The notes under the pieces were generated by a model, which saw only the letters and a list, made by a program, of their open reading frames with translations, had not been told where the DNA came from and made no database searches. From positions 23,314,001 through 23,378,000 of the forward strand of contig NC_087251.1 of assembly GCF_037042905.1 (NCBI RefSeq): a stretch of 64,000 bases of DNA. Direction: 5' to 3'. The translations under genes and the position numbers were made by a program. The stretch comes from Lytechinus pictus. Taxonomy: Eukaryota. Shown here in pieces: positions 2,789-51,234 of the stretch. Position 1 is the first letter of the stretch, and every line of letters begins with the position of its first letter.

Positions 2789-2862
2789 GCAACAGAACAA
2801 GAGGACAAGCAGATGGTTTTGGACTTGAGATCCTTCCAAAGCTGAAAGATGTCAAAAGTGCA
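2789..2862 (+). CDS. FMN: Formin (FMN/Cappuccino subfamily) internal coding exon, FH2 domain: (G)[24 protein letters not shown]
   Basis: Acceptor tgttttag|GC at 2788/2789 and donor GCA|gtaagt at 2862/2863. The peptide matches the FH2 signature [24 protein letters not shown] of FMN1/FMN2/Capu. The upstream exons were not found in the window. Confidence 0.95.
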
Positions 2863-3307
2863 GTAAGTTATTTAGATAGATAGACAGAATGGTGTAATGA
2901 AATAATTCAATGTGCAGCTCTAGAGTTGAATTACATAATCTGTTTGCAATGGAAAGAAAGGTCATGGTGTCCTGTTTGAGATAAAGTTACTACCTTGGTA
3001 ACAGGGCTCAGAAGCCAATCACAATAAAGCTTTCCACAGTAAGTACAATAATAGAAAAAGTTACAATAGTTGTAATTCTTTATAATGCAGGCCCCAGGAC
3101 ATCTAAAACATATAATATGCTTGAGTAAATAGAGAAGCAAGATAGTAAAATTTCCACAAAATCAGATTTATGTAATAATTGTAAAAGTTACTCAATTTTT
3201 TAGTTTTTATTTTATGAAATGGTGATTTGTATAGTATGGACTATGGGCAAATTACTTTGCCATTGATATCATGAGCTCATTTTTACTTTCATTGTCATGA
3301 TGATGTA

Positions 3308-3479
3308 CAGGTAACTCTGCCTAAGTCGACCTTCCATAAGTCGAATAATCACCAGGTCGAAGCATTTTATTCGACCAGATTATTCAAACATGTGTTATAT
3401 ACCTCTTCTAATTCATATTTTGCCCAAGACTAACAGATTTCTCTGGTCTCAAGAGATTTGACTTCGGCAGAGTTACCTT
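3308..3479. mobile_element. Tc1/mariner-type MITE
   Basis: TA|caggtaactctgcctaagtcga ... tgacttcggcagagttacctt|TA: imperfect terminal inverted repeats of about 20 bp with TA flanks. Confidence 0.75.
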
Positions 3480-4630
3480 TATTTTAAATTGTGTATAGAA
3501 ATTATCTTTCTTCCAATTCAGAATGATTTAAAAATATGAAATGATCGTTATTGAATGACATTATTATTTTTAGAAAGATGAGCTTATGGTATCAAAGGTC
3601 TACTTACAGCCTGCATTTTCATTAAGCACATTTCAAAATGCCAGAGCTTGATTTTAAATGAAACATTTATATTTTTTGGCAATGTATTGATCCATTTCTA
3701 TTTTGATCAGTTTGTGAGGGGAAGTAATGTTGCCTCACAGAGTTTGCAATGCTTGCTATTTCAGAAATGTTGTTGCATGCATTCACTCAATTATATCATG
3801 TGATTCAAGATGCTTCTTTTTTTTTCTTTTTTTTTTGCTCCTGACCAGTTCATGGAATAAATTTGACCCCTGTTTCTTTTTCATATAGAGTGCATAACAA
3901 AAGTTACAAATTTTCACTGAATATTGTAAAATTGTCTGATTTACAAGCTGAAATGTAAAAGCAAATGAGGCAATACTTTGCATGAAGTCTATTGCTTTTA
4001 ATAAGACTAAATGGAGTACCAATGCTGAAACAATATCCATTTAAAAGCATTTTCATTAGCAGAATGTATGCTACCTAAAATTTCAAAATAGTTGTATTGC
4101 CAAGCAATATCTCCAAAATATGTAAAAATGTATACTGATAATAATAATGGTCTTCATTGATACTTATAAACACTTCTTGCAACCAAATGCTGAATTACTA
4201 ACGTATATACTACGATTCTGATAGAAAATTAGTTACATTGTAAATAAACCATTAAAATGCACATAGCTGGGTAATAATATTAATACCATGTTTTGTACTC
4301 ATCTTTAAAATCAGCTTTGTGCAGGCCAGAAATTGTTTGCCAAAATTCATTAGTTTTAATTGAAAGTTCATTATGTTATAATGTAATTGTTGATAAAACC
4401 TTGTTTTCAATCATTTTTTTTTACCATTGTGTAATCACTTTTCCAATTTCATAGTTCTTCTTAAATAATTTGTATATGGGATAGATTTAGAGGGACTCCT
4501 TCTTTTGATGCTTCTGAGTTTTATTATTTATTTGCTTTTCTCTTCATTTTTTTTCTTGAATTTCTCATCCATTCATCAAGTTCATAATGTTTGTTTTCTT
4601 AAACTATTTGTTTGATATATTTCACTGCAG

Positions 4631-4690
4631 GACAATGATGCAAATCTACTGGAGTATATTGTTGCATGCTATGTTCACAAAATCGATGGA
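4631..4690 (+). CDS. FMN: Formin exon, 60 nt: DNDANLLEYIVACYVHKIDG
   Basis: Acceptor ttcactgcag|GAC and donor GGA|gtaagt. Phase 0/0 continues the previous exon. Resembles the FMN segment DNxxxLxxYxVxxY. Confidence 0.92.
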
Positions 4691-5093
4691 GTAAGTTACA
4701 GCAAAAAACAAATGCTTTTTTATACATTAGTTCCTATCGATCTAATGTACATGTATTCTGTGATGCATGCCACTGTCATGCCTTTATATTCAGTAGTATA
4801 ATGCTTTCATGTAATACTTTAGTTGTTCCTGTCTTTACCCGTTTGGTGTAATTGTAAGTTATTTGATTTATTCACTGTCTGGATGTAATATCATATAGTT
4901 CCATTTAATTTACATGATAGACATAATATATTTGTCTATTCAATACATTGATGTGCTAGTGATATGTATCAATCTACATTTATTCACTGCATGCATATGT
5001 ATTAATCTATTCACTGGATTAACTTGATAGTTTTCTGTTCTAATTTATTCACAGAATCAGTTTGAAAGAATCACTGAATTGATTTGACCGTAT

Positions 5094-5529
5094 AATAAGC
5101 CTGTTCACGGTTGTAAACTGCGCACGAGCAGAAAAAGGTCATTGGAGACAACCATGAAGGTGGCTTTCAAAGTCACTGACATAGGCATTTGTGATTTGAT
5201 GATTATTCATGTATTCCTTTCAAAACATTTATCACATCCAAGCTGAAGAGTAATAAATAGAGCCTTCATAATCACTGGTATTTGACAGTAGCCTAAACAA
5301 TAGTCAAATGTGCCAAAGGCAGACAATAAAACAGATTTCCAAACTTTATTCCTGATGTACTATTCTAGTCACCTGGTCTATACAATGCCTTTTGTTCTTA
5401 GAATTTGAATACTCTACCGGTAAAGCTTACGCAACATCTACATTTGAAAATGATAGTGCTTATCCTAATGAAAAGAAAAAAGGTCATTTGGGAAAAGTTT
5501 ATCATGAGCTAACCGTGAACTGGCTTATT
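5094..5529. mobile_element. MITE-like element, superfamily unassigned
   Basis: Inverted termini aataagcctgttcacggtt / aaccgtgaactggcttatt (1 mismatch in 19 bp). Target site duplication unclear. Confidence 0.65.
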
Positions 5530-5731
5530 GCATCAAGTCAATCTATTTATACTTAATTGATATGATTGTTGTTCTTTTTTGTGAATTGCTGTTATAGTAT
5601 ATTGCATCAATCTATCTGCTATACAGAAGTAATACTGCATCAGCAGTAAATAACTAATATTTATTAATCAATGAAATTGACTTGCTGAATAATACATTCA
5701 TTTATTTTGTTATGTTTTGTTCTAATAATAG

Positions 5732-5852
5732 GATTCAGGAGCTGATCATACAATCTTGCCATTGCCTGAACCAAGTAAGGTAACCCAGGCTGGACTTATC
5801 AAGTTTGAGGATCTTGACAAGGACCTTAGAAAGATTCAAAAGGATCTCAAAG
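5732..5852 (+). CDS. FMN: Formin exon, 121 nt: DSGADHTILPLPEPSKVTQAGLIKFEDLDKDLRKIQKDLK(G)
   Basis: Acceptor ttgttctaataatag|GAT and donor AAAG|gtagcg. PLPEP and KFEDxxKDLRK motifs are characteristic of FMN-subfamily FH2. Confidence 0.93.
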
Positions 5853-7860
5853 GTAGCGTACAATAATCAAATATATATGTAATGGTACTCATGGGTAAAA
5901 TGTCCTATAAGGAGGCCATTTGAAAGAAGTTGGGGGGGGCTTACATATATGTCATAGACTTAATATGTACAATAGATTTCTCTTGATGCTTTTCGACAAG
6001 ACAATTAAAAGAAGATTTTTAATAGCGATTTGATCTTTATGTAAACGCCGTAGGCATCCTGTCATCTTATTGTTCATAGCCCTCACATTTGAACGCAATT
6101 ATTGTCAAAGAGTAAAGTGGATTATTATTCTAGTGGCTGTATATTATATGATCTAAGAATTGACTGGATCAAAATGCTGTATTCTTGGCAAGCAGCCAGA
6201 GACTGATAGAGTGATTGAGCACCTGAGTCTATTCAATGTGGCTGTTCTAGTTTGCCTTTGACCCTTAATTCGGCAAGCAATCTGTAGCAGGCCTCCATGA
6301 GCACAGCACTCTGCTTTCCATGTATTTCACTTCATTCATTTCCTTTATCTGTGGATATCATGCATATACGTCTTTCATTTCTCCTTGAGTTCATCTTTTG
6401 TGCATGCACTTCCTGTAGTATAGTCACGTTCAATTTCATAGAGCAATACATAGAAAAAGATTGGAAAAAAAAGGCGGAAAAAAAATCCAACTTTTACCTT
6501 ATTTATCTCTAAAATGACAGAAAATGCTCAAAATATCATAAAACAGTTTTGCATTAACGATTGATTTATTTTCTGACGGAAATATGGGCCTAATTTGCTG
6601 AATGTCAATCTTGTCTGCTCCTTCGATTGAATGTTGAGGTGCGGTGTATTGTGGATGATTGTCGACGGCTATAATCTTAAACCGTGCGCAAGGTTTACCG
6701 CGATTAGAGCCATCGACGATCGATGGGACATGCAGTTAAAAAAATAAAATAAATAAAATTGGTTAGCAAACACAAATTTATTACCAACATCTGCTCAGAT
6801 TCGATATAAAAAAAAGCAAACAAAAACTTCAAATTTACTCATGATATGATATATGAATAAAAAATCACACCAATTCTTTCTTACAGCATTATAATCAAGA
6901 ATATCTTTACCCTTCTGGTCCGCGTCCGGAATCATGATGTAATTTGTCACTCACGAAAATAATTGTTTTTCGTGGAGGGGTATGCAGCAAGTGCGATGCA
7001 AAGAAAACAGTTGTTAAATATAAAAGAAATATATTATATTCATAATTTTCATAATATTTCGAATAGCAAGTGCAAATTTTTCTTGATTGTATTTCCTCCT
7101 GTTGTCATTTTAAAGCACTGAAATAAAGGTGTCCGGCAATAGGATACACTGCCATACAAGCAATTGACAGTGCTTTATTCCTATCTATCCAACACTGACA
7201 GTGGAGGATTACCTCTAACTCTTAGTAAAGAAAAGACAAATATTCATAGTGCATTGGTGCCTATTTTTTACACTGTAATGAGGTGCAAACCTACACTATA
7301 ATGAGGTGCAAACAAGCACATTGCATATGCAGCTACCAGTATGAAACCATGCAAGCATTGCTAGTGGGACGATGGGGTTAGGTGCCATGCTCTCAGGGCC
7401 TCTCTGGTGCAGTAGCTAGCTATGTACACAATGCCAGCTTGCAAGCTGTCGTTGCCATTCACCACAGGAAATAAGATTTTATTTCACCCTGATTAGCTTT
7501 GTCATAACCCAAGATTTTTCAAGCATTAGCAGGCCTTAAGTAGTTCAAACAGGTATACTTCTTATATGGGAATGTCATTATATTCTGAAGGTTGCATACT
7601 GAAGAAAGTCTTTGTTAAAAAGTATTGTTTTGTTTCAAACCTCATTATCAGTAAGTGGGCTAGAGATCCCACCTGTGACATTCAAGTGATACTTTGGTTT
7701 TGACTGACCGTTACGAATAACAGAGAATAGATGCAAGTGCAATTAATATTGATATCCATTTAGCTTAGCAAGTAAACTGGCTTCCTCATTAGTGATAGGA
7801 AGTGAGATGTATTTTGTAATTTAGAAATGAGATCATGCATGATGCCCATCATCTCATATA

Positions 7861-8885
7861 AGAGTGTTAATGAACAGCAGCAAGAAGAGTATTAATGAAC
7901 AGCAACAAGAAGAGTGTTAATGAACAGCAGCAAGAAGAGTGTTAATGAACAGCAACAAGAAGATTGTTAATGAACAGCAGCAAGAAGAGATTTAATGAAC
8001 AGCAACAAGAAGAGTGTTAATGAACAGCAACAAGAAGAGTGTTAATGAACAGCAGCAAGAAGAGTGTTAATGAACAGCAGCAAGAAGAGTGTTAATGAAC
8101 AGCAGCAAAAAGAGTGTTAATGAACAGCAACAAGAAGAGTGTTAATGAACAGCAGCAAGAAGATTGTTAATGAACAGCAACAAGAAGAGTGTTAATGAAC
8201 AGCAGCAAGAAGAGATTTAATGAACAGCAGCAAGAATAGTGTTAATGAACAGCAGCAAGAAGAGTGTTAATGAACAGCAACAAGAAGAGTGTTAATGAAC
8301 AGCAACAAGAAGAGTGTTAATGAACAGCAACAAGAAGAGTGTTAATGAACAGCAACAAGAAGAGTGTTAATGAACAGCAACAAGAAGAGTGTTAATGAAC
8401 AGCAACAAGAAGAGATTTAATGAACAGCAACAAGAAGAGTGTTAATGAACAGCAACAAGAAGAGTGTTAATGAACAGCAGCAAGAAGAGTGTTAATGAAC
8501 AGCAGCAAAAAGAGTGTTAATGAACAGCAACAAGAAGAGTGTTAATGAACAGCAGCAAGAAGATTGTTAATGAACAGCAACAAGAAGAGTGTTAATGAAC
8601 AGCAGCAAGAAGAGATTTAATGAACAGCAGCAAGAATAGTGTTAATGAACAGCAGCAAGAAGAGTGTTAATGAACAGCAACAAGAAGAGTGTTAATGAAC
8701 AGCAACAAGAAGAGTGTTAATGAACAGCAACAAGAAGAGTGTTAATGAACAGCAGCAAGAAGAGTTTTAATGAACAGCAGCAAGAAGAGTGTTAATGAAC
8801 AGCAGCAAGAAGAGATTTAATGAACAGCAACAAGAAGAGTGTTAATGAACAGCAGCAAGAAGATTTTAATGAACAGCAGCAAGAA
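7861..8885. repeat. 25-bp minisatellite (agagtgttaatgaacagc[a]rcaaga), about 41 copies, in a formin intron
   Basis: Directly visible 25-nt period with few variant units. No spacers. Confidence 0.98.
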
Positions 8886-9874
8886 TTGTACAGCTGGGCT
8901 CAAAAGTTTTATACATCTATATGTCTAGTATAATTTTTTTTTCAACAAATTCCCCCATCTTTAGTTTCCTAAACAATTTGATTTCCTGCTTAATTCCACT
9001 ATGTCTTCTTGTATAATTAATGTTTACATTCATACATGATACTAGAATATATGTGATTTTTCAAGAAAGTCAAAATATGACCCACAATAAATACATTTCA
9101 ATATACCATATATACTGTATGAGAAGAATATAAGTAGACATGCAGTTTACTAAGAAATATGATTATATAGGCAACCAAGATGATGAAAATTTGAGAAAAA
9201 CTTTCTTTCTATTGTATAAACTTTTGACCTCAACTGTATGTAGCAATAGTGTTGCATTCTGCCCTAGAAAGGCGAGTCTGTGTTATCCCTTGCAATGTCT
9301 GTTCAAAGTTCAAAGTCATTTCTTTCACTATTCATAAAGAAATAATAAATGCTGTGTTACCATAGACCTACATAAGCAACAACAAAAAAACAGTGAAATA
9401 TAAACACTCTCTGGTGATTATTCTCACTATGGTGTATATTAATTTGGTATTAATATGGGTCACTTTTCATCACATGATTAGGCCCAAAAGATCAAATTAA
9501 AAAAAAAGTCTAATATACATGATTAATGCAAAAAGTATATCAAAGATGACTTATGGGAATGGGGGGTAATATCAAGAAATATATAGCCTTATAAAGCTGT
9601 AACAAGAAATAATTAATAAAGACCATTTATAAACATGGGAGGAGTAAAGGAGTAAGAAGGAAAAAATGGCAATCCTTTGGTCTGGGTTTTCAGAATCATA
9701 GATCACAATCACTGAAGTCAGCATTTTCAAGAGGAATGATTTATTTTTGTACAAGGTCATGTACAACAAGTATTAGTTCAAATGGGCAAATACAGTCCAA
9801 GATGTCATTCATAATGTCAAATATATCATTGTTTATGACGAGACCAGGAATGTCGGCTTATAATACATAATATG

Positions 9875-10545
9875 CAGAGGCGTCGATCCTGGGGGGGCAG
9901 GGGGGGCGATCGCCCCACCAATGAAAATATTGGGGGGGCAAACATATCGTTTTGCCCCCCCCCCAATAATTCCGCATGTGTAAAAAAAAAAATAAGATTG
10001 TAATGTTACACAGAAATCAGCAAGCGAGATCGAAATACACAACTCGTTCTTTATTTAAAATCATGCTCAAAATGTCCGCTTTTCAGATTGGAATATAAAA
10101 ATTTTCAGCTCCCGCTTCGCGCTCGCATCATTTCTGTAGCAAAAACCCATACTTTTCTTGATTAATAGGTGAATAGAATGTCCCGTTTTCAGTTCTAAGC
10201 CTCAAAATAACTCGCGGTTCGATTTGCAATAATCTTTTGTTGGATATATATCTTGTTCTTAATTTAAAACGTCCATTAAACTCAATTTTTTTCTGATCAA
10301 AATATCAAAATTTTTAGCTCGCGCTTCGCGCTCGCATCTATTGTTTTTTAGATACCCATCTTAATCATTGGTACCAAAAATGCATAGAATATCAAGCTTA
10401 CAGGTCAGAATATAAAGAAATTTCACCTCCGGCTCTCGGCACTCGCATTATCTGTGTAGTGAGATATGTATCCTCATGACAAACAGTCCTAAACAGGCAC
10501 CTTTTTCCTGTTATCAGATCAGTATACAAAAAAATTTCTCTTGGA
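9875..10545. mobile_element. Fragment of a G-tract non-autonomous DNA-transposon-like interspersed repeat
   Basis: Starts cagaggcgtcgatcctggggggg with G/C runs. Contains three related aaatttt(c)agctcgcgcttcgcgctcgcat motifs near 10100, 10310 and 10420. The right end was not identified. Confidence 0.6.
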
Positions 10546-11492
10546 CTATCCCCACCTTCACCAATCCTTTAGACCAGAGAGGGCAGCAGACAGGTTGCCA
10601 CACTGGGATGGACTCTCATTATAGGTATCACAGGCCTAATCCATTTCCCATAGACTCGTGTGTTAATGTGGCACTTAAAAAGAATTCATAAAAAATAAGG
10701 ATGAAATTCGAGGGTTGAATGTTTACTACCAGTGGATAGGATAAATGTCTGACATTCAATATCTGACCAGAAAAGGGTACCTCGACCAGCTCATTTTAAA
10801 AATAAATCAGCATTTATGAAGACTACACCTGATGGGATCAAATTCATCGCTTGAGAGAGTAAAATGGCCCTAATTCTTCCGCCAGTAAAAAAATAGTTTC
10901 AAAGTAGTGATATATCTTTCCGATTTGGAAAAAGGAAGTTAAGTAGGTACCCTCCCTAGAATCAGTGTTAGATTGTCAATCATATTCATTCATTTTGTCA
11001 GTCAGCAATATCAAATTTAAAAATTGAGCTATGGGTTGGCTCGAATGAATATCTTTTGCCTGCCAGTTGTAGTTAGGCCCGTGTGACCTTCAGTATTATT
11101 ATCATAGTACATTCCTTCTATTGTTTTTTTTTTCAATTTCGTACCATTATATGCAGATTTCTTTTAATCAAATAATTAGGAATACTCAGGAAACTACGGT
11201 TTCAGATGGATGATGTTTAAATACCATTATGATTGTAGAAAGCTTAATGAAAGGAATCTTATTATTGAAGACAAAGTTCACTCTCATCTGACTTGGGAAA
11301 GCCTTTGTGTGTGAGAAACAGGATTTTATACATATATATTCTGGCTGTAAGGAATTATTTATGCTTTTGGTGAGTTCATCAAATCAAATCATTTTATTTC
11401 CACAACAATATAGATAATATATAAAAAATAGAATGCACAAAAGAAATTATTATGAACCAAGTACGATTTAAATTCAATACAAAGAAATTAAT

Positions 11493-11643
11493 GTTTGCCC
11501 AACTTAACCAGATCTAGCTGTCTTTCAGCGCTCAGTGCATTCAATGAATTAATCCTGCCGGGTACCCAATTGCCTCACCTGGGTTGAGTGCAGCACAATG
11601 TGGAAAAATTTCTTGCTGAAGGAAATTACGCCATGGCTGGGAT
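11493..11643 (-). mobile_element. SINE fragment with CORE-like domain
   Basis: Reverse complement contains ttccttcagcaagaaatttttccacattgtgctgcactcaacccaggtgaggcaattgggtacccggcagga, related to the core of the SINE at 25693. Confidence 0.7.
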
Positions 11644-12977
11644 GTACAAATATGGTGATGATTCCAATGTAGAATTCGTAGAGAACATCCTATTATTGAA
11701 TGGATTCATCAAACACCCTTACTACTCATACCTGTAATGTACCTTTTTAATTGAATCAATGATTGGTTACCTGGGGCAGCAACTTTGAGGGTTGTGACAC
11801 CCGTTTGAATAGCTGAGGGTGTAGCACTTACCAATACTCAAGATATGTTGGTTCGTGCTTACATATTCTCAAAGGTTTGTAGGGATGCCAGTTTTCCAGC
11901 ATTGTCAGATCTTCCAATTAACCTCTCTTTTTTACCGTAAATTCTGGCTTCGTAAATAATTTGCTGTCTTTCCTTTTGATCCCACTGCAAATAAGTCAGA
12001 AGATATAAACAACAGCAGACTCGCGATGTTAGGTAGCTCACTCTCGCTGGACGGCTGGGCTGCATTGGGGGCAAGTGCAGTTTTGGCTAATGGCTTTGAC
12101 TGCCAGTGCAAGTTTTTTCATTTGACTACACTGATGTGATATTGATGCTGGTGTGAACAAGACTTCAACTTAAGTGGCTTGAATTAATGTTGTTTTAAAT
12201 TCTTACAAGCCTAGTTCATTCATTTTTTACTTCCAAAATGCATCAGAGTTACACATAAAATATGATTAAATATAAGGAGGAATGACCCTTCAGATTCACT
12301 CAGATTGCAGCAGAGAGCATCTAGAACCTGAGAGCTTCCAGGAATTCTAGCCGAAGGGACATTGGTCTCACATTAAAAAGATAAATAAAATAAATTAAAA
12401 AATATAGCTCTGGAGTCATTTGCCACTTACACCCCGTTGGTTTGGCTTTGGTTGTAGCGGCAAGTGGTATTTTTATCCATGGTTTATATCCGGTGTTATT
12501 TCCTTCATCTGGTCTGATCTTGTTTTATGAAAATGGACTCTGAGAAACTATGTTTGTGTGTTACTAAACTGCCACCAGAGTTATGGTGCATGTATCTGAA
12601 TTTGTTCAGCAGCTATTTTCCGCTATTTTATGGCAAACTATCATCATTTTTGTGGTGGCCCATTGATATCTACTTTGTCTCATATATTCAAATAATGCAT
12701 CATGTATTCAAATCAAATGTTTCTATTGTGTTTTGCACAATTCTTCACATTTCTATTTATGCATACCCCGAAATTGGGAGCTGCATTTTTTTTAGGAATC
12801 CCTTAAGGTTGAAATCTTCTCACATAAATACTATCTATTGAAGTGATGATAGATATGTTTGAACACCACTATTTGAATGAATGATATTAATTCTCAAAAA
12901 AAAAATTATACCAAAGGAAGAAGATTATCTGCTGACTATTATAGCTGACCAAAGAGAAAATATCTGTATTTTTTCAG

Positions 12978-13122
12978 GTTGTGAAACCAAAGCGGAGTCG
13001 GTTCGAAAGAATTCAAGTGACGAACATCGGCAGCCCTTCAGTGACAACATGGCTTCCTTCATGAGTGGAGCTTTGGAAGATATCAGCAAGGAGAGCAGAA
13101 GATTATCTGATACAAAGAAGAA
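12978..13122 (+). CDS. FMN: Formin exon, 145 nt: (G)CETKAESVRKNSSDEHRQPFSDNMASFMSGALEDISKESRRLSDTKK(K)
   Basis: Acceptor tattttttcag|GT and donor AA|gtaaga. Phase 1/2 fits both neighbours. Contains a QPFxxxMxxF motif. Confidence 0.92.
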
Positions 13123-13513
13123 GTAAGATGGGCTGGAAAATAGCATATCATTATTTAGCTTTGCCCCAAACGGTTTTTAAATGTTTCAGGAAAACTGGGA
13201 TTATTTATGAACTCATCAACTCAAAATATAGAGCTTCCTTATTAATATCAGCACTGGATAAAGGACAACGTTTCCTTGAAGCCATCAAGTGGCAGTACTC
13301 AAAAGTATATACTTTATGAGAATGATCCAAACACAAAATCAGGCATACACAATCAGAAGCTTGATAATTAGGGGCAAGTTTGATAAATATATATATTTCT
13401 TGGAAATTGTTCTCAGGATCTTAGAGCTTATGATGATCCTCTCATGTATATATGTTATCTTTGTGATTTTACCAATGACAAAAGTTATGCAATGTTGACA
13501 GTGATGTATATAT

Positions 13514-14459
13514 GAAGAGTTTGGTTGCAAAAGGGGTTAGATTCACTTTGGACCACTCCGAGAAAAATCATGTTTTTTTATTCTCCCATATTGCAATATT
13601 ATTATGAGAAACTAATTTGTCATGATGTACTACCCTATCATGTGAACATGAAATTGGGTATAAAAGAAATCTACCTGTCTTCAATTTTCTTTAATATATA
13701 TTTTTTTAAATTATCATTGTGGATCTAACCCATTTTGCTAGCAAACTAAAATGAATCCAATCCCTTTTGAATAAAAACATGATTTTTATTTGCCACTTTT
13801 ATTCAAGTTTTAATATGACTTTCAAATTTTCTTTGGTATCAAAAAAGCCAAAAATTATATTTACTGTACATGTTATGTTTGTTTCGTTTTGTTTTTACTT
13901 TGTATTGATAAAATGAAATAAATCAGAGTTTTATTAAATTGACCCATTCAGCTCTGCTGCTGATTAATATTATGTGTATATTCCAATAAATAAGATAAAT
14001 AATAATCATCAGAGTGACTAAAAATCTATAGGGTTTTAGACTGACCCCTTTTGACAAATGAGCTCTTCAAAAGAGTTTGGTTGCAAAGGGAGTTAGATCC
14101 GCTCCAAGAAAATCATTTTTTTTTATTCTCCCATATTGCAATATTCTTATGTAAAACTACATTTTCATGATACCCTAACATGTGAACATAAAATTGGGTA
14201 TAAAAGTCTTCATATTTTCTAAATATTCTTTTCCAAAAAATTATTTGTGGATCAACCCCTTTTGCAACCAAACTGAAATGGATCCAACCCCTTTTGAAAA
14301 AGAAGTGATTTTCTTTGCCATTTTTGTTCACTTTTTAATGGGAAATTCAACTTTTCTTTGGTATCACCTTGTAGAGCTACTAAAAAGTCTATTTTCATTG
14401 AGACAAAACATCAAATTTGATGAAAAATGGATCTAACCCCTTTTGCAACTGAGCTCTTC
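13514..14459. mobile_element. Head-to-tail dimer of a non-autonomous DNA transposon with ATAT flanks
   Basis: ATAT|gaagagtttggttgcaaaaggggttagat ... atctaaccccttttgcaactgagctcttc|ATAT. Copy 1 ends gagctcttc at 14068 and copy 2 restarts aagagtttggttgcaaagg at 14071. Confidence 0.75.
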
Positions 14460-14504
14460 ATATATGAATAAAATCAATCAATCAATCAGAGTTTTATTAC
14501 TGTT

Positions 14505-14990
14505 TAACTTTCTTTTTTTTCTTTCTCTTTTTCTCCCTTTTCTCTCATTTTATCCTCTTCATTCTTCTTTTAATGTTCCTTTATTCTTCTTGTCTTTTCT
14601 CCTATACCTTACCTTACATTTCTATCTCTTCCTCTGACTCTTCTTCCTTTTCCCAACCTCCTTCCTCTGTTGGTTATTCTTCTTTTTTGTGATTTGTTTT
14701 CCCCTTCTAACTTCTCACCTTTATTTCCCGTTTACATTCTTTCTTTCTCTTTCTCTTCATTTTACCCTTTCTCTTGCTCTTTCTCCTTTCTTGTTCTCAC
14801 CCTATTAAATCTCTACCTCTTCCTTTTCTCTTCCTCTTCCCATTTTATCTTTCTTATTCTCGTCCTATTCTTATTTCTCATCCTCTTCGTCTTCTTTCTT
14901 TTTCTCATCCCATTCCTATTTCTCTACTACCCTTTTCTTTTCCTTTTCTCTTTATCCTCTTCCTCTTGGTTTGTTCTTCAACTTTTAATA
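14505..14990. repeat. Polypyrimidine (C/T-rich) low-complexity tract
   Basis: About 480 nt almost entirely C/T on the + strand, ending about 100 nt before a formin acceptor. Confidence 0.9.
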
Positions 14991-15093
14991 TTTTTAATTG
15001 GAAGATTAAATTTAGCATTCTCACTCCAGTAAGAATATATAGTGTCAGTAATAACATGTAATTGATCATATGCTGTTATGATTTTTCATCCAG

Positions 15094-15243
15094 GTTCCAT
15101 GAATTAACAGAGTGGTTCTGTGTGAAACCCAAACAAAGTGACAATGAGGTAACCCCAGCCTATTTCTTCAGTCTATGGACCCCTCTATGTAGAGACTTCA
15201 AGGATCTATGGAAGAAGGAACAAAAGGTGGCTGCTAAGAAAAA
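15094..15243 (+). CDS. FMN: Formin exon, 150 nt: [49 protein letters not shown]
   Basis: Acceptor tttttcatccag|G and donor AA|gtaaga. Matches the FMN FH2 C-terminal KPKxxxxExxPxxxFxxWxxxxxDFKxxWKxE pattern. Confidence 0.95.
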
Positions 15244-20170: not shown

Positions 20171-20177
20171 TCTCTCT

Positions 20178-20220
<43 letters not shown>
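20171..20220. repeat. (CT)n microsatellite
   Basis: Direct reading. Confidence 0.95.
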
Positions 20221-20227
<7 letters not shown>

Positions 20228-23200
20228 CTATGTCCATTCATTTCTGAAATCTATTTGAGTTCCTTCTCATATGTTTATATATAAATAGCTGTTGTATCAT
20301 TACATAAAAACCTCTGCTGCCCTCTATTGACTGCATTTATATTATTTGTGCCTACAGAGAGAGAGAGGTAATATGGTAAAAATGTTATCACTTAATCTCA
20401 AATGTCACTTGAAATTAACTTGACAAATGGAGATTCATGAATGTGTATTTGTAAATAATAATCAGACACATACTTTCTCTTTTCATCTCTACGTGTAGTG
20501 CAATAAATTTTCCTTTCATTTTAAGCGTGCTTTACATAATGGTACTTAAATTTATTAGGGAATATGCTAATTGTAAGCTATAGTTAAAGCAGTACTGTCT
20601 ATTGATCAATATAAAGTATCAGTTTCTTTGTTTCATGAGAGATATCAAATGTGTATGTTTGCAGTGTGGTTGACTTAAAATTGCTCCCAAATTGTAAACT
20701 TTCTCTCTTATAGTTATATTTTCTAATTATTCATAAAAAAACAAAAATTGCATGAAACTTCTGTCTTTCACAATTTGTATTCAAAAGGCTGAAGTCAATG
20801 ACTTATCCCCTTTTTTTCAACTCTTCTTTGATATACATCTCAATAGAAATGTTTTGTTTTCTTTCTTTTGCATATATTCTGATTGTAAGTCTTATGTGTA
20901 TATTATAATGTAAAGTGTACACTTATTGATATTTGTATTCATGCATGTACATCTAGCTTAAAATATGTCCTCAACTTATAATATGGCTATATTATTTACT
21001 CATGTTATATTTTTGAAGTTTTGGAGTGATGATAGTTATATCTGTGCTATTTCAAAATGTGTACAAAAATAGGTTGAAATTCATTAAACTAGGCTGATGA
21101 TACTTAACTAGATTTCTTGCTTTTATATTTATATTTGAAAATATGTGTATACTGTAGTATATATCTTGAACATATCTTTTTTGTTTTGCACAAGTGTTGT
21201 GTTAATTATGTCTCCTAATACCAACAAATCTTGTTTGGTTTTGAAAGGTATGTTTTTACAGAAGAACAAGTAAAATGGCCAGGTTTCTGAACTTGGAGGG
21301 AGGTGGTTTGTTTTCTTTTTATTTCCAAACAGGTAAAAAGAAATGCAATAAAAAACATATAAAAAATAAGTAGAAAAGGATATAGATTACAATTCAGCAT
21401 AAAGCCCAATTCTGTGTTGATATAACATTAAAAACGCCATTCCATTGCATGCTAAAATTATGTTATTACAAAATGCATGAGCAATGTGCAGTGTTTGAAA
21501 AGGCATTGTAATGAAAAAAAGATAACTTGGATTATTGCAGTGAAGAACATATGAAACATTGTCATTATCCTCAATAAAGGTTTTCATGACCATTCCATGA
21601 CATTAACTGGGTTTATGATTTAATTTATAAAAGTACTACCAAAAAGACATTCCAATTTTTATGTAAAACTGAAAGGGACCTTTGTCAAATGTGCTTCTTC
21701 AGTTGTACATTGATCTGCCGATCTTTCTGCTTCATGTCTCTCACAGCTCATATAAACCTTCAAATCTTTTGTATTGCATCTCAATATGTATATATTCAAT
21801 GACCAACTCTTTTCAAATCAGGTTGCCGGTTGCATGCATTGTATTGCCAATTTGGTATAATGATTTACTAAGGTACTATGAAGGTCATTGGTCTGCCATG
21901 AAGAGTATTTTACCAACTTAGTATTGCCATAAGACGATCAACTCTCCGCTCTTTGTATAAAAATACTGAAATGTCAGATCTGTGAGAACAATTATATGTG
22001 ATCTAGTATTTGCTCTATTTACCAGCTTTGTTTGAATTGAGTTTATGGATTAATCAAAATCCAGCATGTGTTGAAAGCTTTATGGTGCATTCCCATTGCC
22101 ATATTATGTTTGTATTCATTGCTTGTACAATGTTGGATAAACCTAATTACTTGCATTAGAAGTCTATTCTGCACTGCAAGTTTGGTATGCTGATCATTGT
22201 AAAAAATCAATGAAACAAGTTCATGAAAAGAGTTGGGAGTAATAACCAGTTTTTCATTCTCTCACCTGCATGTAGATGACTGAAAATCTGAAATGATATT
22301 CAAAATTAATTGCTTTTCCATACTCTACCTGATGCCGAAAAGCATTGAGAAATAAAAAAAAAATGTACCAAAGCTTTAATCAACTATTGACATGATCTCA
22401 ATATGATTAGAAAAGTTGCATGTATATTGCAATTTACATAAGCATTTCAATGCACAATACAAACCGAATGTTATATTATGATAGTATCTTGTCTTCCATG
22501 TCTTCCTTATCCTTTTCTTTGTCATTCTTTTTTATCTTATCATCCTTCCCATTTTCGTTCTTGCAAGTGTTTTTATGGACGAATGAACTTCACATTTTTG
22601 ATACATTCAATGCGACACTGATTTGAGTTGATTTCGGGACAGAAGGTAAAAACGTAAGATTTTGCGAGGCATCGGAATGTGCTGATATGGAAAAATAAAG
22701 TACATGAGACTTCATGGTGTCATTCATGCATACCAGCTTGGAGCTTCAAGTGTAAGAATAATTGCATTGCACTTGGGAATTGGGCAATTGTAACAGTCAT
22801 GACAATTGAGTCTTCTATTGGAATAACTCTCTGTAATCAGAGTTGAGAAAAAATCAGCATGTTCATGCGCTATCTATTTGTGGATCTTGTGCAGAAAAGA
22901 AGCAACGATTTCTCTTTCCAATCCCCTGGAGGGAATTCAGTCTTTCTATTGTATATCATGTTTTATCTTTTCCTTTCTCTTAATGTAATTATATTCTCAC
23001 ATTCTCTCACAACTATCATGGTTCCCATTGCTCTGATATTTCATTACATTCCTAAGAAAATGTTTACTGTCACTAAAAGGGAACCCTGCTGTAGTAGGGT
23101 CAAGATTCATATGCTATACTTTTTTTAATGTAAGTATATGAAATTTTAATATATTCTCTTCGTCAAGTGGGATTTGTTAAACTTAGTCTGGACCAGTAGG

Positions 23201-23577
23201 CGTTTGTTTGAATTAATTATTTTCAAACAGTCATGTTAATTTTCACAACGGTATACAGCTTTAGCGTCTACCGTATTGATACAGAAATCAGTATGGATAT
23301 TTGATATCCCTTGTGAATTGCATTTGTAGATTATTACAGTGCTGACGATTGTAGGATTTTATCCATGATTAAGTTAGAATGATAGACAATGGTAGCTATA
23401 TGACTTTGTATCATGCAAATGATTTTAAGAATGGTATATATACAAAGAGAGCAATAAATTATGGAAATTTAATCTAATACTTATCTCGCCATGCTCGTAT
23501 GTTTCTTTTGTGATAGTGGAATGCTATTTTCTTCAGAAACGCATTTAGTCAACTCTGACATAGTGGATGGATGTATA

Positions 23578-23808
23578 CAGTGGTGCTAAAAAGTTAGTGA
23601 ACCCCACCAGAATATGAAAATTCTTCAAGGTTTTCAAGTTCTGCCGTCTTTTAGATATTTAATTGTGAAGTCAGGTGATAAAATATTACATTCAATAAAG
23701 TTTGTTTCTCTTGGCTCGCAGGGCATTGTACTGGTGTTGTCGACATTCAATACTCGGCATGAACTAGTGCATTTTCTAGTGGGGTTCACTAACTTTTTAG
23801 CACCAATG
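23578..23808. mobile_element. Tc1/mariner-type MITE, 231 bp
   Basis: TA|cagtggtgctaaaaagttagtgaaccccaccagaa ... ttctagtggggttcactaactttttagcaccaatg|CA: terminal inverted repeats of about 35 bp. Confidence 0.85.
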
Positions 23809-23998
23809 CACATGTATGTGTGTTAACATTTTCATTTGAATGTTATCTTATCCATTTACCGAATACTAGAAGTTTTAATGAAGTTGGAAGTTCTTGTTGA
23901 ATACATGTATTCATGGTCTCAACTTTACCCTCATGATTCAACTGATATTACATTGTAAATCTATTTCTGTTGAGATGGATTTTTAACAATACCAATCG

Positions 23999-24343
23999 TT
24001 TTGTGTGATGATGACAATGATCGAAATATTATATCATTTACCAAACTGCATAGATAAAGACACATACACTTGTAACAAAAGTAATTTTGTCGATTCCTCA
24101 ATTCAAAATGGATTTCATATATAGATTAGTCTGGTCCTGTAGATTCATTGAATGAACCTATTAACTAAAAAATTTTGTGACAATGACAATGAAGAAATAT
24201 TGATATATCATTACCAAAATACACAGGCAAAGACACCTGCATTGGTAACAAAAGTAATTTCATCGATTCCTCAATGAAAAGTGGATTTCATTTATAAATT
24301 AGTCTGATCCTGAAGATTCAGTGAATAAACTTATTGACTAAAA
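23999..24343. repeat. Diverged tandem duplication of about 175 bp
   Basis: gtaacaaaagtaattt..tcgattcctcaat and attagtctg.tcctg.agattca each occur twice, about 173 bp apart. Confidence 0.85.
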
Positions 24344-25692
24344 TCTTCAATGAAATAGTAACAGATGACCTCTACTATTGATTTGTAATTCATTTTAGGT
24401 CTTGTTTTTCTGTATTTTATTCATATGAATCGCTTCATTGTCGCCTTATTGTTTGATTTGTTTTATACCTGTTTAATAACTGGCTAGTCTTATAATGGTT
24501 GATTGGTTTTGTTTAATGGGCTCAATGACTTATCTGTCTCTATCCTGGCTGGCAGGCTCCAAAACTTTGTTCACTGGATGATCGCTTTCGTAATTGCAAA
24601 TGGCTCGCGGGTGGGGCAAGTTTAAAAGAATGATTACTTGGTTTTACGACTTGTCTATTTAATAAAGAACAGATTGGTCAAATTATCAAAAGATTAATGA
24701 CTGGTCATTTATAAGATCAATAATTTGGTCCATGATCATTATTTATCTTTTCCAAAATAATGAATTATGTCGGTGCTACCATTATAATGCGTAATTGTCA
24801 ATTTTATGTCTGATGGTCTCCATTAATACACTGTCAACCCTCATCTAGAGAACCAGTCTATCATAGTGCATTCATGGTTCAGATCTTAGCACACCTCCCC
24901 CCGGCCCCCACTACCGTGACTACCATGAAGAGGAACAAAATTGACTCGGTCATGCTCCTTACTGCCATTAAATTGACAGAAAAGTTGTATTGAGAAAGAG
25001 GTGCAGCCGATGTTCCGTGTAAAAACTCGACTAATGGGACCATGCAAATCGACATGGAGTCGACACGATATCTATTGACATTCATTTGTCATAATAAAGA
25101 CAGGATCGACTTTAAAGAATGACAAATATTTTTTTATCTGCATTCTGCTGTTCGTGTAATGAGATGCTCGTGAGGCATCAAGCCAGAAAATACCCGCCCC
25201 TTAAAGCACAGAGGATTGTATGTTTCTCGTTTGACAGATGCGCCCAACTTCCCTGCTTAAATGAATTATTTGTATTAATACAAGAAAGACAGTACGGAAA
25301 AGGAATAAAGCAATGAAAAGAGATGTAATTGTTCAGCAATGATCGATAAAAAGCACCGAGCCGTATCGAGAATACAAATATAAGTTTGTATTTAACAGGT
25401 ATTATTCCTATGGTATCAATGCCCGGTGTATTGTATGGAATGATAAGCTCCGGGCGTCATCATACTCCACCGATTATTAGCGTATTATACTTGTTTTAAA
25501 CGGGCGCCACGCAGGCGATAGAACACGACGCAATTTCGTCTTTCGGGGAGTTTTGTGCTTTTAACTTGCAAAGTCAGATCTTTCATGCCGAGAACGAGGA
25601 ATATTCCGATAAATGATCATTCTTTTCTTGGCTTTGGTCTCTTTTCGTAACGTAAATCTAGTCATACAAATGTCTCTAATCTAATAGTGGAA

Positions 25693-26049
25693 GAGCCGTG
25701 GTGTAGTGGTTCTGACTCTCGCCTTGTAAACAGAGGGTCGTGTGTTCGAATCCCACCGCGGTCTAGCGTCCTTTGGCAAGGCGTTAATCCACACTTTGCC
25801 ACTCTCGACCCAGGTGCTAAATGGGTACCCGGTAGGATGCGAAAGATATTGTATGTTTGAATTTGCCAGCGCCATAATGAGGCTGCGATGAATGCAAGGA
25901 ATGCTCCCCAGGGAGTGGAAACTGTGCACTTTTCGTGCGGGATTGAATTGAATCCAATGACCGGGGTAATAATATGCTGTAACGCGCTTTGGGCCATTCT
26001 GGGAAAAGCGCTTTATAAAAATTGGCTATTATTATTATTATTATTATTA
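25693..26049 (+). mobile_element. Apparently full-length tRNA-derived SINE with CORE-like domain and (TTA)n tail
   Basis: Pol III A box tggtgtagtgg (25699-25709), B box gttcgaatccc (25744-25754), core gtcctttggcaaggc...cccaggtgctaaatgggtacc, and 3' end aagcgctttataaaaattggc followed by (tat)n. Confidence 0.9.
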
Positions 26050-29000
26050 ATAAACACGCAAGGAGACACAGAAGTTCTAAATAAATTAATGCTTTTGATA
26101 TTTTGGTAATGGCTTTCGTTCTGTCATCATATTAAGCCAAGATGGATTCTAGTCCTAAAAATGATAGATTTAGACCCATTAATGATAAGAGCTTCTGCTT
26201 TTTTTCATATTACGATTAAAGACACCACTGTCAACATTTTTGAAATAAAAATTACTTTTATAATAGCCTCGGTTTCAGTTTTGTTGATAATAGACTGTCA
26301 CCTCTGTATATTCTCTGATTTTGATATCGTTTATACGTTTATACTTGCTATTGAAAAATATACTTTCTGGCTTGCATTATTTTGTAGAAGATCGGTTTTA
26401 CTTTTCTTCAGTCGAACCCATTAAGAGAATAGTAAAATGTACCTTGTGGATTTTTTTTTCAACTTCATTAGATAATGAAAACGTCATATTTTATGGAAAC
26501 ATAAATTGCAAAGTCGTTGACAACTTTTTTTTTACAATATTTAATGGCAATTTCATCGAGTCATGCGTAAATTATAGCTCATTCACTGTTTAATAAAAAT
26601 GTATTTTTATTAGCTGTTTAGCGGGGTATAAAGAAATGCGGCGTTCTTTTACAAAATTATATCATCATCGAGGAAATAATGATCCTTCGTCTCTCAGAAA
26701 GAACAGGGAAATAGCATTGTGACGTACGTGTATAAAGGGTTCAATAACCTGCGAGTTAGGAAACCGCTTCGTATTTTTATCGAAATTATTGCCGAAAATG
26801 GCAATTGTCACCAATCTTTAACGTCAAGTGGAGGAGCAAGGATTTTTTAGGAAGATGGAGACACAGCGATTAGTCTGACTGGCGACAGGCAGCGCGATCC
26901 TGGTGTGAACTTGTCACATTCCAAACTCAGGGGTAGCTCTAACCCAAGACAGTATGTTGATGGTTGTATGGTCCGTACCCATAGGAGAAAAAACAGGTCT
27001 GCAGTTGGTCCACCCATGAAAGACGTTCCCTAGTGTTGCTCGGTGTAACAAAAAAAAAATATATATATATGTATGCTGTGATATCAAGGCGACTGAGGCG
27101 AAATCGGGTGAAACGCCCCGACCTTTATCCAAACACACTTTAATATCACGTTTGGATTAAGTGTTTGACGAGACAGTAGGGAAATACCAATAAACAAACA
27201 CAACCAACTGGTTCAGATAAATAACAATTACTTATGAAGCAATAGAAAAGTGGTGAAGGCGAACCTTTCTCTAACATGTCAAATAGAGATACAAGAGCCA
27301 CTGATCGGTTTTGACCCAATAAAAAAATGGGGCCTAAAGCCCCAGTCCCCGTTAGGTGCCCCCTGCTTGAATTATAGAAAAAAATAAGCTGTCATTTCAG
27401 AAACAATTGTGATTGCATGGATAGTTTTTAATAACTCAGGGCAACCGGGCAGAGCAATCTAGTGGTAGTGTTAACAGGCCGTGATAGTTGCACCCCCTCC
27501 ACCCATCTTTTGCTCCCCGTGTGCATTGGTGGTTACGGCACAGTATATGCCAATGCATCGGTTGGTTATAGGCGACCGGGGCTCCCACTGGGTCGCTAGG
27601 GTTGTATGTCCGCTCGGGTGCAACCTTTCGAGGATAAACGGATGTAGCCATCGCATCTCAATATTCTTATCATATTTTGATTAAATAATCTCATTTACAT
27701 TTTCTAAAACATATATGAATGAGAAGTGAGTGATGTGAATCACAGATTGAAATTATTACTTATATGTATGAAAAATCCACAACAAATTATTTCCTTCTAA
27801 AGGCCTATTTGGAAATTTCTTTAATACACGAAGTATAGAGTGAATATTGACGGTTATCTAGTCTCACTGTGTAATGTGATTTGGGGAGAATGTTTTTTTT
27901 TTAATAGCAAATGTTGCAAATGATTTAGAAATGTTCGAAAGAAACTCCAATATGTTTTTAGAACGATCTTACTTTATCGAGTGTTAAAAGTCTGATGCTA
28001 TGATATGTTCTGAGTCCGAAGGGCATTTTTGTTTATATTTCTTGAATGGAGAAAACATCCTTACTTGAATCATTAATGTTGTTTTATTATTATTCTCTTT
28101 ATGAATTAATAAATTATGCAGTGTTTTAAGATTTGTCCATGTATGAACATTATCATTTCCAGTGTTGGAAATAGTATTTCTAAATCACACACACGCGTCA
28201 CGGTCACGCACATACTCCCACCCTTTCGCACTTACACACCCTCGCAAACACGCACACACACACCCACATGTGCAGCCTTCTTTCTCTCCCCTACCTTTTT
28301 CTCAGGAATTTAATTCGGTACTCATTCTGTACTTAATGTACACACCTTGTTACAAAATACATCTAAAAGACATTTTTCTGGACTCAAATCATCGATGACT
28401 GGCTCAAGAATGTGAGAAAGTTTCAACAGAACTGTACTGAAATCAGTAATATTAAATAGACACCGTTCTGTATCTTATAACCCGTGATGTCATGACTTTA
28501 TTTCATGAGCATAACTATAAGTTTGAACATTGATATGAATTTCAGTCAAATGGTGCCGGGTCGTTCTGGTCAGACAAAAATGGAGAGAACGTTCCGACGC
28601 CACTGAGCCTAACAAATTGAAAAAAACTTCTTGAAAAAAACTTATCCTAAATGAATTAGGACAAAATGTTAATTTCTTAAAATTATCAAAATTCAAGTCG
28701 TTTTTGTTGCATGAAGATAATCTTTATTTGTACATGTATAAAAGTTTAAGCAAGGAGGTCGTTGGTTTAAGTCAGTAACATTGGAAAATTCTTCTTATTT
28801 CCCCCCCAAAGGTAAATGTTGTTTTCCAAAGTGTTTGCGAACTTTCAGAGCTGAGTCCCTGTTTTCAGTGTAGTATTGACCTTAACAGCTGCGGTCCTAT
28901 ACCCAGACCTAGTCTTGATCATGAATCAAGAGAACCCTGCATGGTACCAACGTGCTGGTCATAACCTCCAGATGTCGACAGGACCAAGAGGAAGGAAATG

Positions 29001-29862
29001 GTTTCCATAAAAACAAGTCTTACCCTAAGAAATCATAAGAGACTGTTTATAAAAATTTTATTCTGTAATATCCGTGAAGGTTTAGAACACATGCACACCC
29101 CATCCCCTGTAAGAAGGAAAACCGCTCGTGGTATTGTGTTTCATATCGTGGAAGTGTGCCTCTCAGTGGATGCCGCCGAAACTTGTTGTCAAAAGGATCA
29201 ATCTCTTTCTAAATAAGATGCAATAACTAGAAGCAGTCAGTCCAGCCGGCGAGACGCTTTCATCTACTACTCCTTCCCTCCTCTATCATCGCCATTTTCT
29301 CTTCCTTCTTTTTAATGTTTTTATTTTAAAAAGCTTTCGGCGTTTTCCACTTTGATCGGAGCCAACATTTTAACACTTGCTATTGATCGTCGAACTGTGG
29401 TAATTCATTTCCTTAACAATGTTAATAGAATTCATTCTAACATGGAGTCATTGGAGACAGGCGCCAACGGAGAAAGAAACATAAAGATTCAGAATAAAAC
29501 AAAAACAATCATAAATGAAACGTGCTATCCACACGGCTTCCAGGATTTTCGTACGACTTCAGAATGATTTATGCTAACATTTTCCTAAACAATATTTTTT
29601 TGTTTTCTTTATTCTATCTGTGTTCTCGTCTGAATTCATTCTTCAAAAGTATATTTTTAACACAATGAAGTATAATTATTGTCTTAAGCATGGCAAGTAT
29701 GAGAATATATGACTTGATAATTTCTGTGGTTAATGCACAATTGTCTTTATTGACGCCATTTTTGGTTTAGATTTCCTGAGAAAATTTAATGCAGCAAAAA
29801 CTGCAATTATTTTTTTACATTATCAAAATACTACAAGCATAAATTATGTGTTGTTATATTAT

Positions 29863-29940
29863 AATCATCATCGTCGTCGTCATCATTGTTTAATTCATCA
29901 TCATCACTTTCTACATCATCATCTTCATCATCATTATTAT

Positions 29941-29972
<32 letters not shown>

Positions 29973-29992
29973 TCAAAGTCGTCAACATCACC
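29863..29992. repeat. Degenerate (CAT)n microsatellite downstream of the gremlin stop
   Basis: Direct reading. Confidence 0.9.
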
Positions 29993-30668
29993 GTCCTTAT
30001 TTCTACTTGAGTTTACAGCCGTTTTTTCTTTGTCAAAACATAATTGTTTGAAAATTGTCAAAGACATTTCGATTCGGCAATATGACTTTTTACACTGTCA
30101 ACAAAGCAACAAAAAGGCATCACAACATTAATTGTATAGTTCATACATATCTCCATGTATTTACATTATATTTCACTCACAAAAATACGAGAGTAGTAGA
30201 GAATATCTTCATTGAATACAGTACAGATTATATCATTATACAATATGTACAATGTGAATATCTCATATCTTCTGTTATACAAATATCAATAATTAATGAG
30301 TGCATTATATTAATTGCATAAATATGGCGTTGTGCCTTTGAGCTCCCTTTGTACGCCACACAGAGCTGTTTGGACACCACTCAGTAAATGTCGTCATCTC
30401 GTTAAGTCACGTGATGATTCGTTGAGTTTCCTATTCCACCAATCAGAGCCTGCGACACGCATCCCATACACGATAATGTGTATACCTTGAATACTGTGTG
30501 TGTACCGTGTGGCCGTGTTTCTTCTTTTTTTTCTTGATACGATGAGATAGAAATAATATTGATACATGTCATAGATAAATTCATCAAAGATGTCCTTTTC
30601 ATCTCAAGTTTTGTCCACAGGATATAAATAGTGTTTTATAAAGTTATACCGTCCCATCGGATGTTTAT

Positions 30669-31244
30669 TTACGGAACATCCACCGCCATGCATCTGCACC
30701 GTTTTACTCTCGGAACCCGTTTCCTTTTGATAGGTGGATTCTGACCAGGGCATCGCAAAGTTACTGTAATGTGGTTAACTCGAAACGGTTTACAAAAAGA
30801 GCATGATTTGAAAGCTTCGTTGTAAGACGCCGCTTGTTTGGGGATAAAGAAAGAGTTACACTGTCCGTAACAGAATCTATTTGCGATGGTCCTTGGGATG
30901 CATCCTGGCTCTTCAATTCTTTGCTTCAAGGGTTGCGTTTTGCACCAGTCCCCGCGGAGGTATTGTTTTTCTGTAATCTGCATGGCTTCTTCGCTTGAAG
31001 GTTTCAGGACTTTGTGTGGGGCTATTCGAATCTCGGTTCCAGGTGGGAACGCTAAGGGGTCCAGGTCCTCCATCTGTGATTTTAAAGAAGTGTATTCCTC
31101 GAGAAGTAAGAGTGGGTTAGTTGGAGGTAGGTAGTGTGAATCGTCAACATTTCTCTCTGACGATGAACGATCTCCTGGCACCAAGGTAGACCCGGCCAAC
31201 ATAGGAATCATCCAAGTGAGACAGAGCAAACACAGTATCAACAT
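30669..31244 (-). CDS. GREM: Gremlin (DAN/Cerberus-family secreted BMP antagonist), 191 aa from the first ATG in the exon
   Basis: Hydrophobic N-terminus MLILCLLCLTWMIPMLAG, then DWCKTQPLKQ...GC...NRFCYGQCNSFFIP...SCSFCKP...TLRCP...RVKRCRC with the nine-Cys Gremlin pattern and the preceding SSxEAxxxTExxYL motif. The listed ORF starts at 31292, but 31252-31292 is intronic (ttttgtttatttgcttatgtctttgacag|GATCATCATG). Confidence 0.97.
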   Translation of the reverse strand: MLILCLLCLTWMIPMLAGSTLVPGDRSSSERNVDDSHYLPPTNPLLLLEEYTSLKSQMEDLDPLAFPPGTEIRIAPHKVLKPSSEEAMQITEKQYLRGDWCKTQPLKQRIEEPGCIPRTIANRFCYGQCNSFFIPKQAASYNEAFKSCSFCKPFRVNHITVTLRCPGQNPPIKRKRVPRVKRCRCMAVDVP

Positions 31245-32765: not shown

Positions 32766-33585
<820 letters not shown>

Positions 33586-51230: not shown

Positions 51231-51234
51231 AGTG

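Follow-up and report, generated by a model that had tools for sequence, protein, structure and literature searches.

Tail-to-Tail Formin and Gremlin Genes in a Sea Urchin: An Echinoderm Case of an Ancient Microsyntenic Pair

Introduction

Grem1 and Fmn1 provide the textbook case of limb enhancers located inside a neighboring gene, which has been studied only in jawed vertebrates in the work cited here. In mouse, the limb enhancers of Grem1 sit between exons 19 and 23 of Fmn1, and the two genes are linked in all vertebrates analysed (PMC3541112; here and below, papers are cited for the available part of their text). The two genes share a regulatory landscape, and the topologically associating domain (TAD) of mouse Grem1 reaches into Fmn1 (PMC8455560, where the words "invertebrate" and "amphioxus" do not occur). 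Did the linkage come before the enhancers, and does the regulatory dependence predate limbs? The locus that raises this question lies in a 64,000-nucleotide stretch of the sea urchin Lytechinus pictus (NC_087251.1, positions 23,314,001 to 23,378,000; hereafter the window), which carries the 3′ part of an FMN-type formin gene on the + strand and a gremlin gene on the − strand. A first-pass annotation of this DNA rightly suspected an invertebrate genome, inferred that in this case the linkage predates the vertebrate duplications and limbs, and suggested that gremlin enhancers in formin introns may hold the pair together as a genomic regulatory block.

We find that the echinoderm case of an ancient microsyntenic pair is real, whereas the regulatory block is plausible but unproven. 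Regulatory constraint is the likeliest of the possible reasons why the pair persists. The urchin version, compact and single copy, indicates that linkage came first, and it allows one to ask whether the regulatory dependence predates limbs or came later. With hundreds of ancient pairs known and a Grem–FMN neighborhood described outside vertebrates in 2014, linkage alone is a modest finding; the real result would be a demonstrated enhancer.

Results

The Pair in L. pictus

The main features of the locus are the following (o/e, observed/expected ratio; UTR, untranslated region).

2789..17792, + strand: FMN/Cappuccino-type formin, 3′ part, with the last seven coding exons, covering the end of the FH2 domain and a basic tail
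2789-2862, 4631-4690, 5732-5852, 12978-13122, 15094-15243, 16638-16731, and 17754-17792, + strand: formin exons, with AG/GT ends
17793..23454, + strand: formin 3′ UTR, about 5.7 kb, CpG o/e 0.26, AATAAA at 23453
23455..30091, no strand: intergenic gap of about 6.6 kb in which no gene was detected (CpG o/e 0.88)
30092..31251, − strand: gremlin coding exon, with acceptor at 31251, ATG at 31244, stop at 30669, and 3′ UTR to at least 30092
31252..64000, no strand: gremlin 5′ side, at least 32.7 kb without a detected gene, CpG o/e 0.78
40307..41520, − strand: candidate noncoding first exon of gremlin, a prediction that could go either way

The window covers the C-terminal part of the formin, about 1150 upstream residues and their introns falling beyond it. 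AG/GT ends are found in 7/7 exons, which share a reading frame that a single stop, ending at 17792, closes. All 226 encoded residues are identical to the end of an L. pictus protein of 1378 aa (P0131, XP_063958323.1), and the translation is identical to that of L. variegatus at 220 of 226 positions and to that of Strongylocentrotus purpuratus at 193 of 225. Four runs were mapped on the stretch 12500-32400, two of raw RNA (X22 and X23, about 6% of each being read) and two contig sets, putatively of RNA (X12 and X17). The three formin junctions within this stretch are all backed by RNA (7/9, 5/6, and 4/6 reads in X22/X23; one contig each in X12 and X17), the three upstream junctions lying outside it. 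First mates at the junctions map to the − strand, which matches + strand RNA. The 3′ UTR was built from pieces of X12 and X17 contigs, from 17753 to 23454, no single piece covering the whole.

Judged by its sequence, the window formin is a member of the FMN/Cappuccino subfamily and a single, pre-duplication gene. When the L. variegatus orthologue was used as query in an FH2 search, the best 120 of 1635 matches consisted of 9 echinoderm proteins and 111 vertebrate ones, the latter all named formin-2 and scoring about 421–431 bits. The DIAPH1, INF2, DAAM1, and FMNL3 entries of PDB reach at most 133 bits against P0133, a comparison that is rough given the other query and library. On these scores the FH2 domain is nearer to FMN1/FMN2 than to other formin subfamilies. 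In a tree of 33 rows of our own selection, all of FMN type and with no other formin subfamily, the urchin formin groups with those of other urchins, outside a vertebrate-type clade of 13 rows (100/100). This clade contains the named FMN2 rows, six rows with tails that we take to be FMN1-like, and one further row. Pfam scans of single exons gave an FH2 match for the first exon alone, below the cut-off. The basic C-terminal tail by eye resembles the tails of FMN2 and of invertebrate homologues; in FMN formins, a short basic tail binds Spire. The FMN models of Branchiostoma lanceolatum (P0299, P0429-P0433) have an acidic C-terminal extension in place of the short basic tail of other homologues. 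S. purpuratus has two loci (LOC115929551 and LOC579678; P0122 and P0134) for an FMN of 1397 aa, and the contig size is identical for both; this is either a duplication or a haplotype copy.

The opposite gene (31244-30669, − strand) encodes 191 aa with a hydrophobic N-terminus and a DAN domain (Pfam, E = 3.5e-36), and by domain, matches, and phylogeny it is a gremlin in its single, pre-duplication copy. Among PDB entries it matches GREM1 (E = 2e-43) and GREM2 (6e-43) far ahead of NBL1 (8e-13), and its knot cysteines are invariant across 18 aligned sequences. The best named gremlin matches (among the best 120 of 138) are those of starfish, sea cucumber, crinoid, and acorn worm; no named sea-urchin gremlin is found among these 120, and the protein collection has no record of the window gremlin itself. 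In a 27-row tree (116 columns; gremlins only, with no nongremlin outgroup), the urchin protein falls in a group of echinoderms and hemichordates (100/98). Hence, the DAN knot is closer to GREM1/2 than to NBL1, and the protein is placed outside GREM1 and GREM2 as a single pro-orthologue. By homology, it would be a secreted BMP antagonist. Urchin embryos are reported to have no left-right asymmetric gremlin expression (PMC3467216). The urchin record P0143 is 97% identical to the gremlin over its full length, including the signal peptide, and the formin tail is 86% identical to that of S. purpuratus; the urchin gremlin would be unusually conserved if P0143 comes from S. purpuratus.

Gremlin contigs cover 30092 or 30135 to 31251, ending at the acceptor site, and carry 868 and 1214 extra letters that are absent from 12500-32400. 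Because they continue past the acceptor into letters from outside this stretch, gremlin has a separate 5′ exon. The predicted exon at 40307..41520 rests on the donor at 40307: of the 18 strong minus-strand donors upstream of gremlin, it is the one whose following 1214 bases are richest in CpG. The CpG-rich patch with this donor (40307-41750) has 15 ATGs in the 1214 bases and is a candidate for the gremlin promoter and first exon.

The two genes thus lie tail to tail, with 12,877 bp from stop to stop. This agrees with the first-pass annotation, which had proposed an FMN-subfamily formin (stop 17792) and a gremlin (stop 30669) about 12.9 kb apart; the exons, the 226/226 identity, and the FMN2 matches bear out the former, and the DAN domain, the PDB matches, and the tree bear out the latter. 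The transcript ends are far closer than the stops, as formin contigs extend to about 23454 and gremlin contigs to about 30092, leaving a gap of about 6.6 kb. It had also been claimed that no gene lies between, and the scans agree, being empty apart from repeats. None of the eight open reading frames (ORFs) of at least 90 aa between the stops has a Pfam match (E 0.05), and Rfam and ARAGORN tRNA scans of the whole window gave no match. Read depth is 0 in 4/4 runs for bins 24452-25115 and 26444-27771 and does not exceed 1.09 across 27772-29763; both high depth peaks in the gap are multi-copy repeats. The ORF and RNA scans therefore reveal no gene between formin and gremlin, with room for one expressed outside these four runs.

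Linkage in Other Deuterostomes

In other species, linkage was judged by proxy, from shared scaffold size and accession proximity, which give neither orientation nor the number of intervening genes. Formin and gremlin records are on a contig of the same size in 6/8 species having both (Acanthaster, Anneissia, B. lanceolatum, Patiria, Apostichopus, and Asterias amurensis), and accessions are close in 3/6 species having both accessions. In B. lanceolatum, FMN (CAH1261393-396) is followed by GREM (CAH1261397) in consecutive accessions on one contig, and in a second annotation XP_066282776/777 are followed by 779/780 (2 apart). The crinoid Anneissia has XP_033105443 and 449/450 (6 apart, 1,648,852-bp scaffold) and the starfish Acanthaster has XP_022104818/819 and 836 (17 apart, 618,158-bp scaffold). 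The UniParc id of the urchin gremlin P0143 is consecutive with that of the S. purpuratus formin. For Asterias rubens, a contig match between the two records was not obtained. The same-chromosome matches of Patiria, Apostichopus, and A. amurensis weigh little, because gremlin and FMN belong to one ancestral linkage group (PMC4079206). A metagenome scan with the gremlin alignment found 64 loci, in which tblastn with the C-terminal parts of 14 FMN proteins gave 0 matches; as most of these loci span a few kb, this negative is uninformative.

The pair is thus seen directly in the urchin, published for vertebrates, and indicated by proxy in amphioxus, crinoid, and starfish. Proxies and vertebrates combined, it was very probably present in the deuterostome ancestor, and its linkage is likely to predate the vertebrate duplications. 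The trees and proxies speak for this part of the first-pass annotation; its novelty is less than was implied, for Roch and Sherwood (2014) reported that, in the limpet, the scaffold carrying SOSD and Grem has DAAM, Lgmn, and FMN in common with amphioxus and human (PMC4079206).

CpG Landscape

The two genes differ in CpG content. The o/e is 0.26 for the 3′ UTR of the formin, whereas the gap has 0.88, gremlin 0.85, and the region upstream of it 0.78. The best change point is 23150 (gain 115.9; range within 2 log-likelihood units, 22400-24900), where the poly(A) signal of the formin lies. Across 22400-24900, the fraction of C followed by G rises from 0.054 to 0.145, so that CpG alone marks the transcript stop. 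The step fits gene-body methylation of a broadly expressed formin beside an unmethylated developmental domain, as far as base composition can suggest it. Any broadly expressed invertebrate gene is expected to be flanked by a step of this kind (PMC8857917).

The 7.1-kb formin intron, the longest in the window, contains two CpG-retaining patches, at 6400-7000 and 9800-10500. The former, with CpG o/e up to 1.4, may be a young insertion or an unmethylated element, and the latter is presumably a transposon piece. CpG depletion results from methylation in the germ line, in which an enhancer that is short, or is opened in somatic cells, would leave no trace. Depletion was considered as a refutation of intronic enhancers and was for this reason dropped as too weak.

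Other Features of the Locus

The gap contains two multi-copy repeats.

23574..23780, no strand: multi-copy element, probably similar to miniature inverted-repeat transposable elements; its ends are inverted, and the mapped reads show high depth, loose ends, and opposite-strand joints
25687..26000, + strand: multi-copy repeat, depth >1000, loose ends, presumably like a short interspersed nuclear element from its tRNA-like head

A 156-base X17 contig at 28811-28966 has 1 mismatch, against 107/1893 in the formin 3′ UTR of X17 (Poisson p 0.0015, for one of many pieces and at low depth); it is possibly a conserved element or part of a longer gremlin 3′ UTR. Upstream of gremlin, 0/21 nonrepeat ORFs of at least 90 aa have a Pfam match (low-complexity ORFs excluded; RNA to 32400). 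The 500-base windows richest in CpG on this side lie at 61350-62000 and could mark an element or the promoter of another gene. Tandem arrays occur inside a formin intron (7860-8885, 25-base unit ×41) and at 32801-33588 ((TAG) ×264), 53755-54510 (76-base ×10), 575-890 (67-base ×4.7), and 24004-24343 (173-base ×2).

Discussion

Why the Pair Persists

The account that we rate most likely, and to which we give about an even chance, combines ancestry with regulatory constraint on the 3′ side of gremlin, in the gap or in the 3′ part of the formin. It is so rated because of the mouse data and because the pair is retained in different phyla and at two duplicated vertebrate loci. In the deuterostome ancestor (probably earlier), a single FMN and a single gremlin would have lain tail to tail, presumably in the present orientation, and the urchin would retain this state. 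The formin would be an actin nucleator that is broadly transcribed and methylated along its gene body, and gremlin would lie in an unmethylated developmental domain. The regulatory domain of gremlin would extend past its 3′ end, across the 6.6-kb gap, into the 3′ part of the formin; breaks within it would be selected against, and so the pair would persist. Later, in vertebrates, these introns would have grown, and limb enhancers would have arisen at a locus whose two genes were linked beforehand. A bolder version, in which FMN–gremlin is an uncatalogued block of the bilaterian ancestor and elements in the echinoderm and amphioxus formin (e.g., 6400-7000) already drive gremlin, is rather unlikely; if true, vertebrate fin and limb enhancers were built upon an older gremlin landscape.

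Ancient regulatory blocks usually consist of a developmental gene and an unrelated neighbor (PMC3514665), and gremlin beside formin is such a combination. To this extent, the suggestion of a regulatory block holds. The same paper also predicts conserved noncoding elements in the bystander introns and intronic enhancers that act on the developmental gene. Within the window, the agreement does not extend to the very long bystander introns that are a further criterion there, and here a series of observations weighing against 3′-side constraint begins. The six formin introns of the window measure 1.0–7.1 kb, and 0/6 exceed 10 kb, a yardstick derived from human genes; their CpG o/e is 0.18–0.42. 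The other (5′) side of gremlin has at least 32 kb without a detected gene. Accession distances are 515 in Apostichopus, 5,598 in A. rubens, and 8,660 in A. amurensis. The value of Apostichopus does not refute adjacency, because an older annotation, used as a control, splits the L. pictus formin into two halves that are 700 accessions apart; both Asterias values exceed this control, and a separation of the two genes on the same chromosome is an open possibility for both species. The B. belcheri records are on contigs of 140,108 and 1,940,265, possibly from different assemblies. Among vertebrates, fugu and medaka lack the conserved limb elements, which arise with intron growth (PMC3541112), a ruminant breakpoint at GREM2 split the region and GREM2 was lost (PMC5274524), and the neighbors listed for vertebrate GREM3 include no FMN (10.1101/794404, the available text of which never mentions formin).

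Several of these facts also suit a pair that is ancient and unconstrained, with gremlin regulated from its gene-poor 5′ region and first intron, and with adjacency kept by slow rearrangement and by the few breakable kb between the 3′ ends. The vertebrate intronic enhancers would then be later and the sole real constraint. The gap of only about 6.6 kb, the at least 32 kb upstream of gremlin without detected genes, the short and CpG-depleted introns, the large accession distances in both Asterias, and the absence of limb elements in fugu and medaka all favor this explanation, the main rival, which we regard as a genuine possibility, though on the unlikely side. Against it, gene-order shuffles give a false-positive rate below 0.0002 per pair for a linkage that is shared by at least four lineages and interrupted by few genes (PMC3514665), and the pair is retained at two vertebrate duplicate loci. 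The shuffles ignore the slow decay of ancestral order, which limits the former point.

The CpG change point at 23150, located where the formin has its poly(A) signal, would also suit a boundary: the methylated and constitutively transcribed formin body would mark where the gremlin domain ends on its 3′ side, and would be kept as a border instead of an enhancer host. This is improbable, as any broadly expressed invertebrate gene is expected to have such a step beside it and could serve as well (PMC8857917), and as the mouse Grem1 TAD reaches into Fmn1 instead of stopping there (PMC8455560). Co-regulation of the two genes by shared elements in the same tissues draws on the statement that both act in kidney development (PMC11933693); the same source knows of no shared enhancer for the pair, ancient co-regulated pairs are mostly head to head (PMC3514665), and X22/X23 contain spliced formin reads and almost no gremlin reads, all of which makes it very improbable. 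Finally, the direct view of the arrangement is this window, other species being seen through proxies that lack orientation, and the adjacency might be a misassembly or of independent urchin origin. The identical orientation in mouse, and proxies that point independently to the linkage in amphioxus, a crinoid, a starfish, and another urchin, make this scarcely credible.

Comparison with Known Systems

The linkage is already partly in print for amphioxus and limpet, and the echinoderm case is new as far as our searches reach. A search for gremlin and formin together with amphioxus, Nematostella, sea urchin, or invertebrates, which left most subscription papers outside, found no publication. The available text of PMC4079206 places FMN in the Grem neighborhood outside vertebrates; it states neither adjacency nor orientation (a figure may show adjacency), includes no echinoderm, and does not relate the neighborhood to the limb landscape. 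In what is available of PMC7530604, GREM and FMN occur in the ohnologue table S6 only and are absent from the 156 block pairs and the developmental-gene table. The main text of PMC3514665, as available, does not name gremlin or formin, and its supplementary pair lists may contain the pair. The Islet–Scaper and Otx–Ehbp1 blocks of these two papers likewise join a developmental gene to an unrelated one across phyla; unlike in these blocks, long bystander introns are not seen in the urchin window.

Two vertebrate loci offer the closest comparison. FMN2 and GREM2 have the same convergent orientation, and FMN2 proteins are the best named vertebrate matches of the urchin formin (among the best 120 of 1635); FMN2 is given as the neighbor of GREM2 in PMC5274524. 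At the Grem1–Fmn1 (limb deformity) locus, mammals have introns of 50–70 kb between Fmn1 exons 19 and 22, whereas those of ray-finned fish and frog (about 3–7 kb) are close to the 1–7 kb of the urchin window. Unlike mouse, the urchin has single, pre-duplication copies and no limbs, and enhancers at its locus are at most hypothetical. The urchin and mouse loci are alike in their orthologous gene families, in the tail-to-tail arrangement, and in a gremlin whose coding sequence occupies one exon after a separate 5′ exon.

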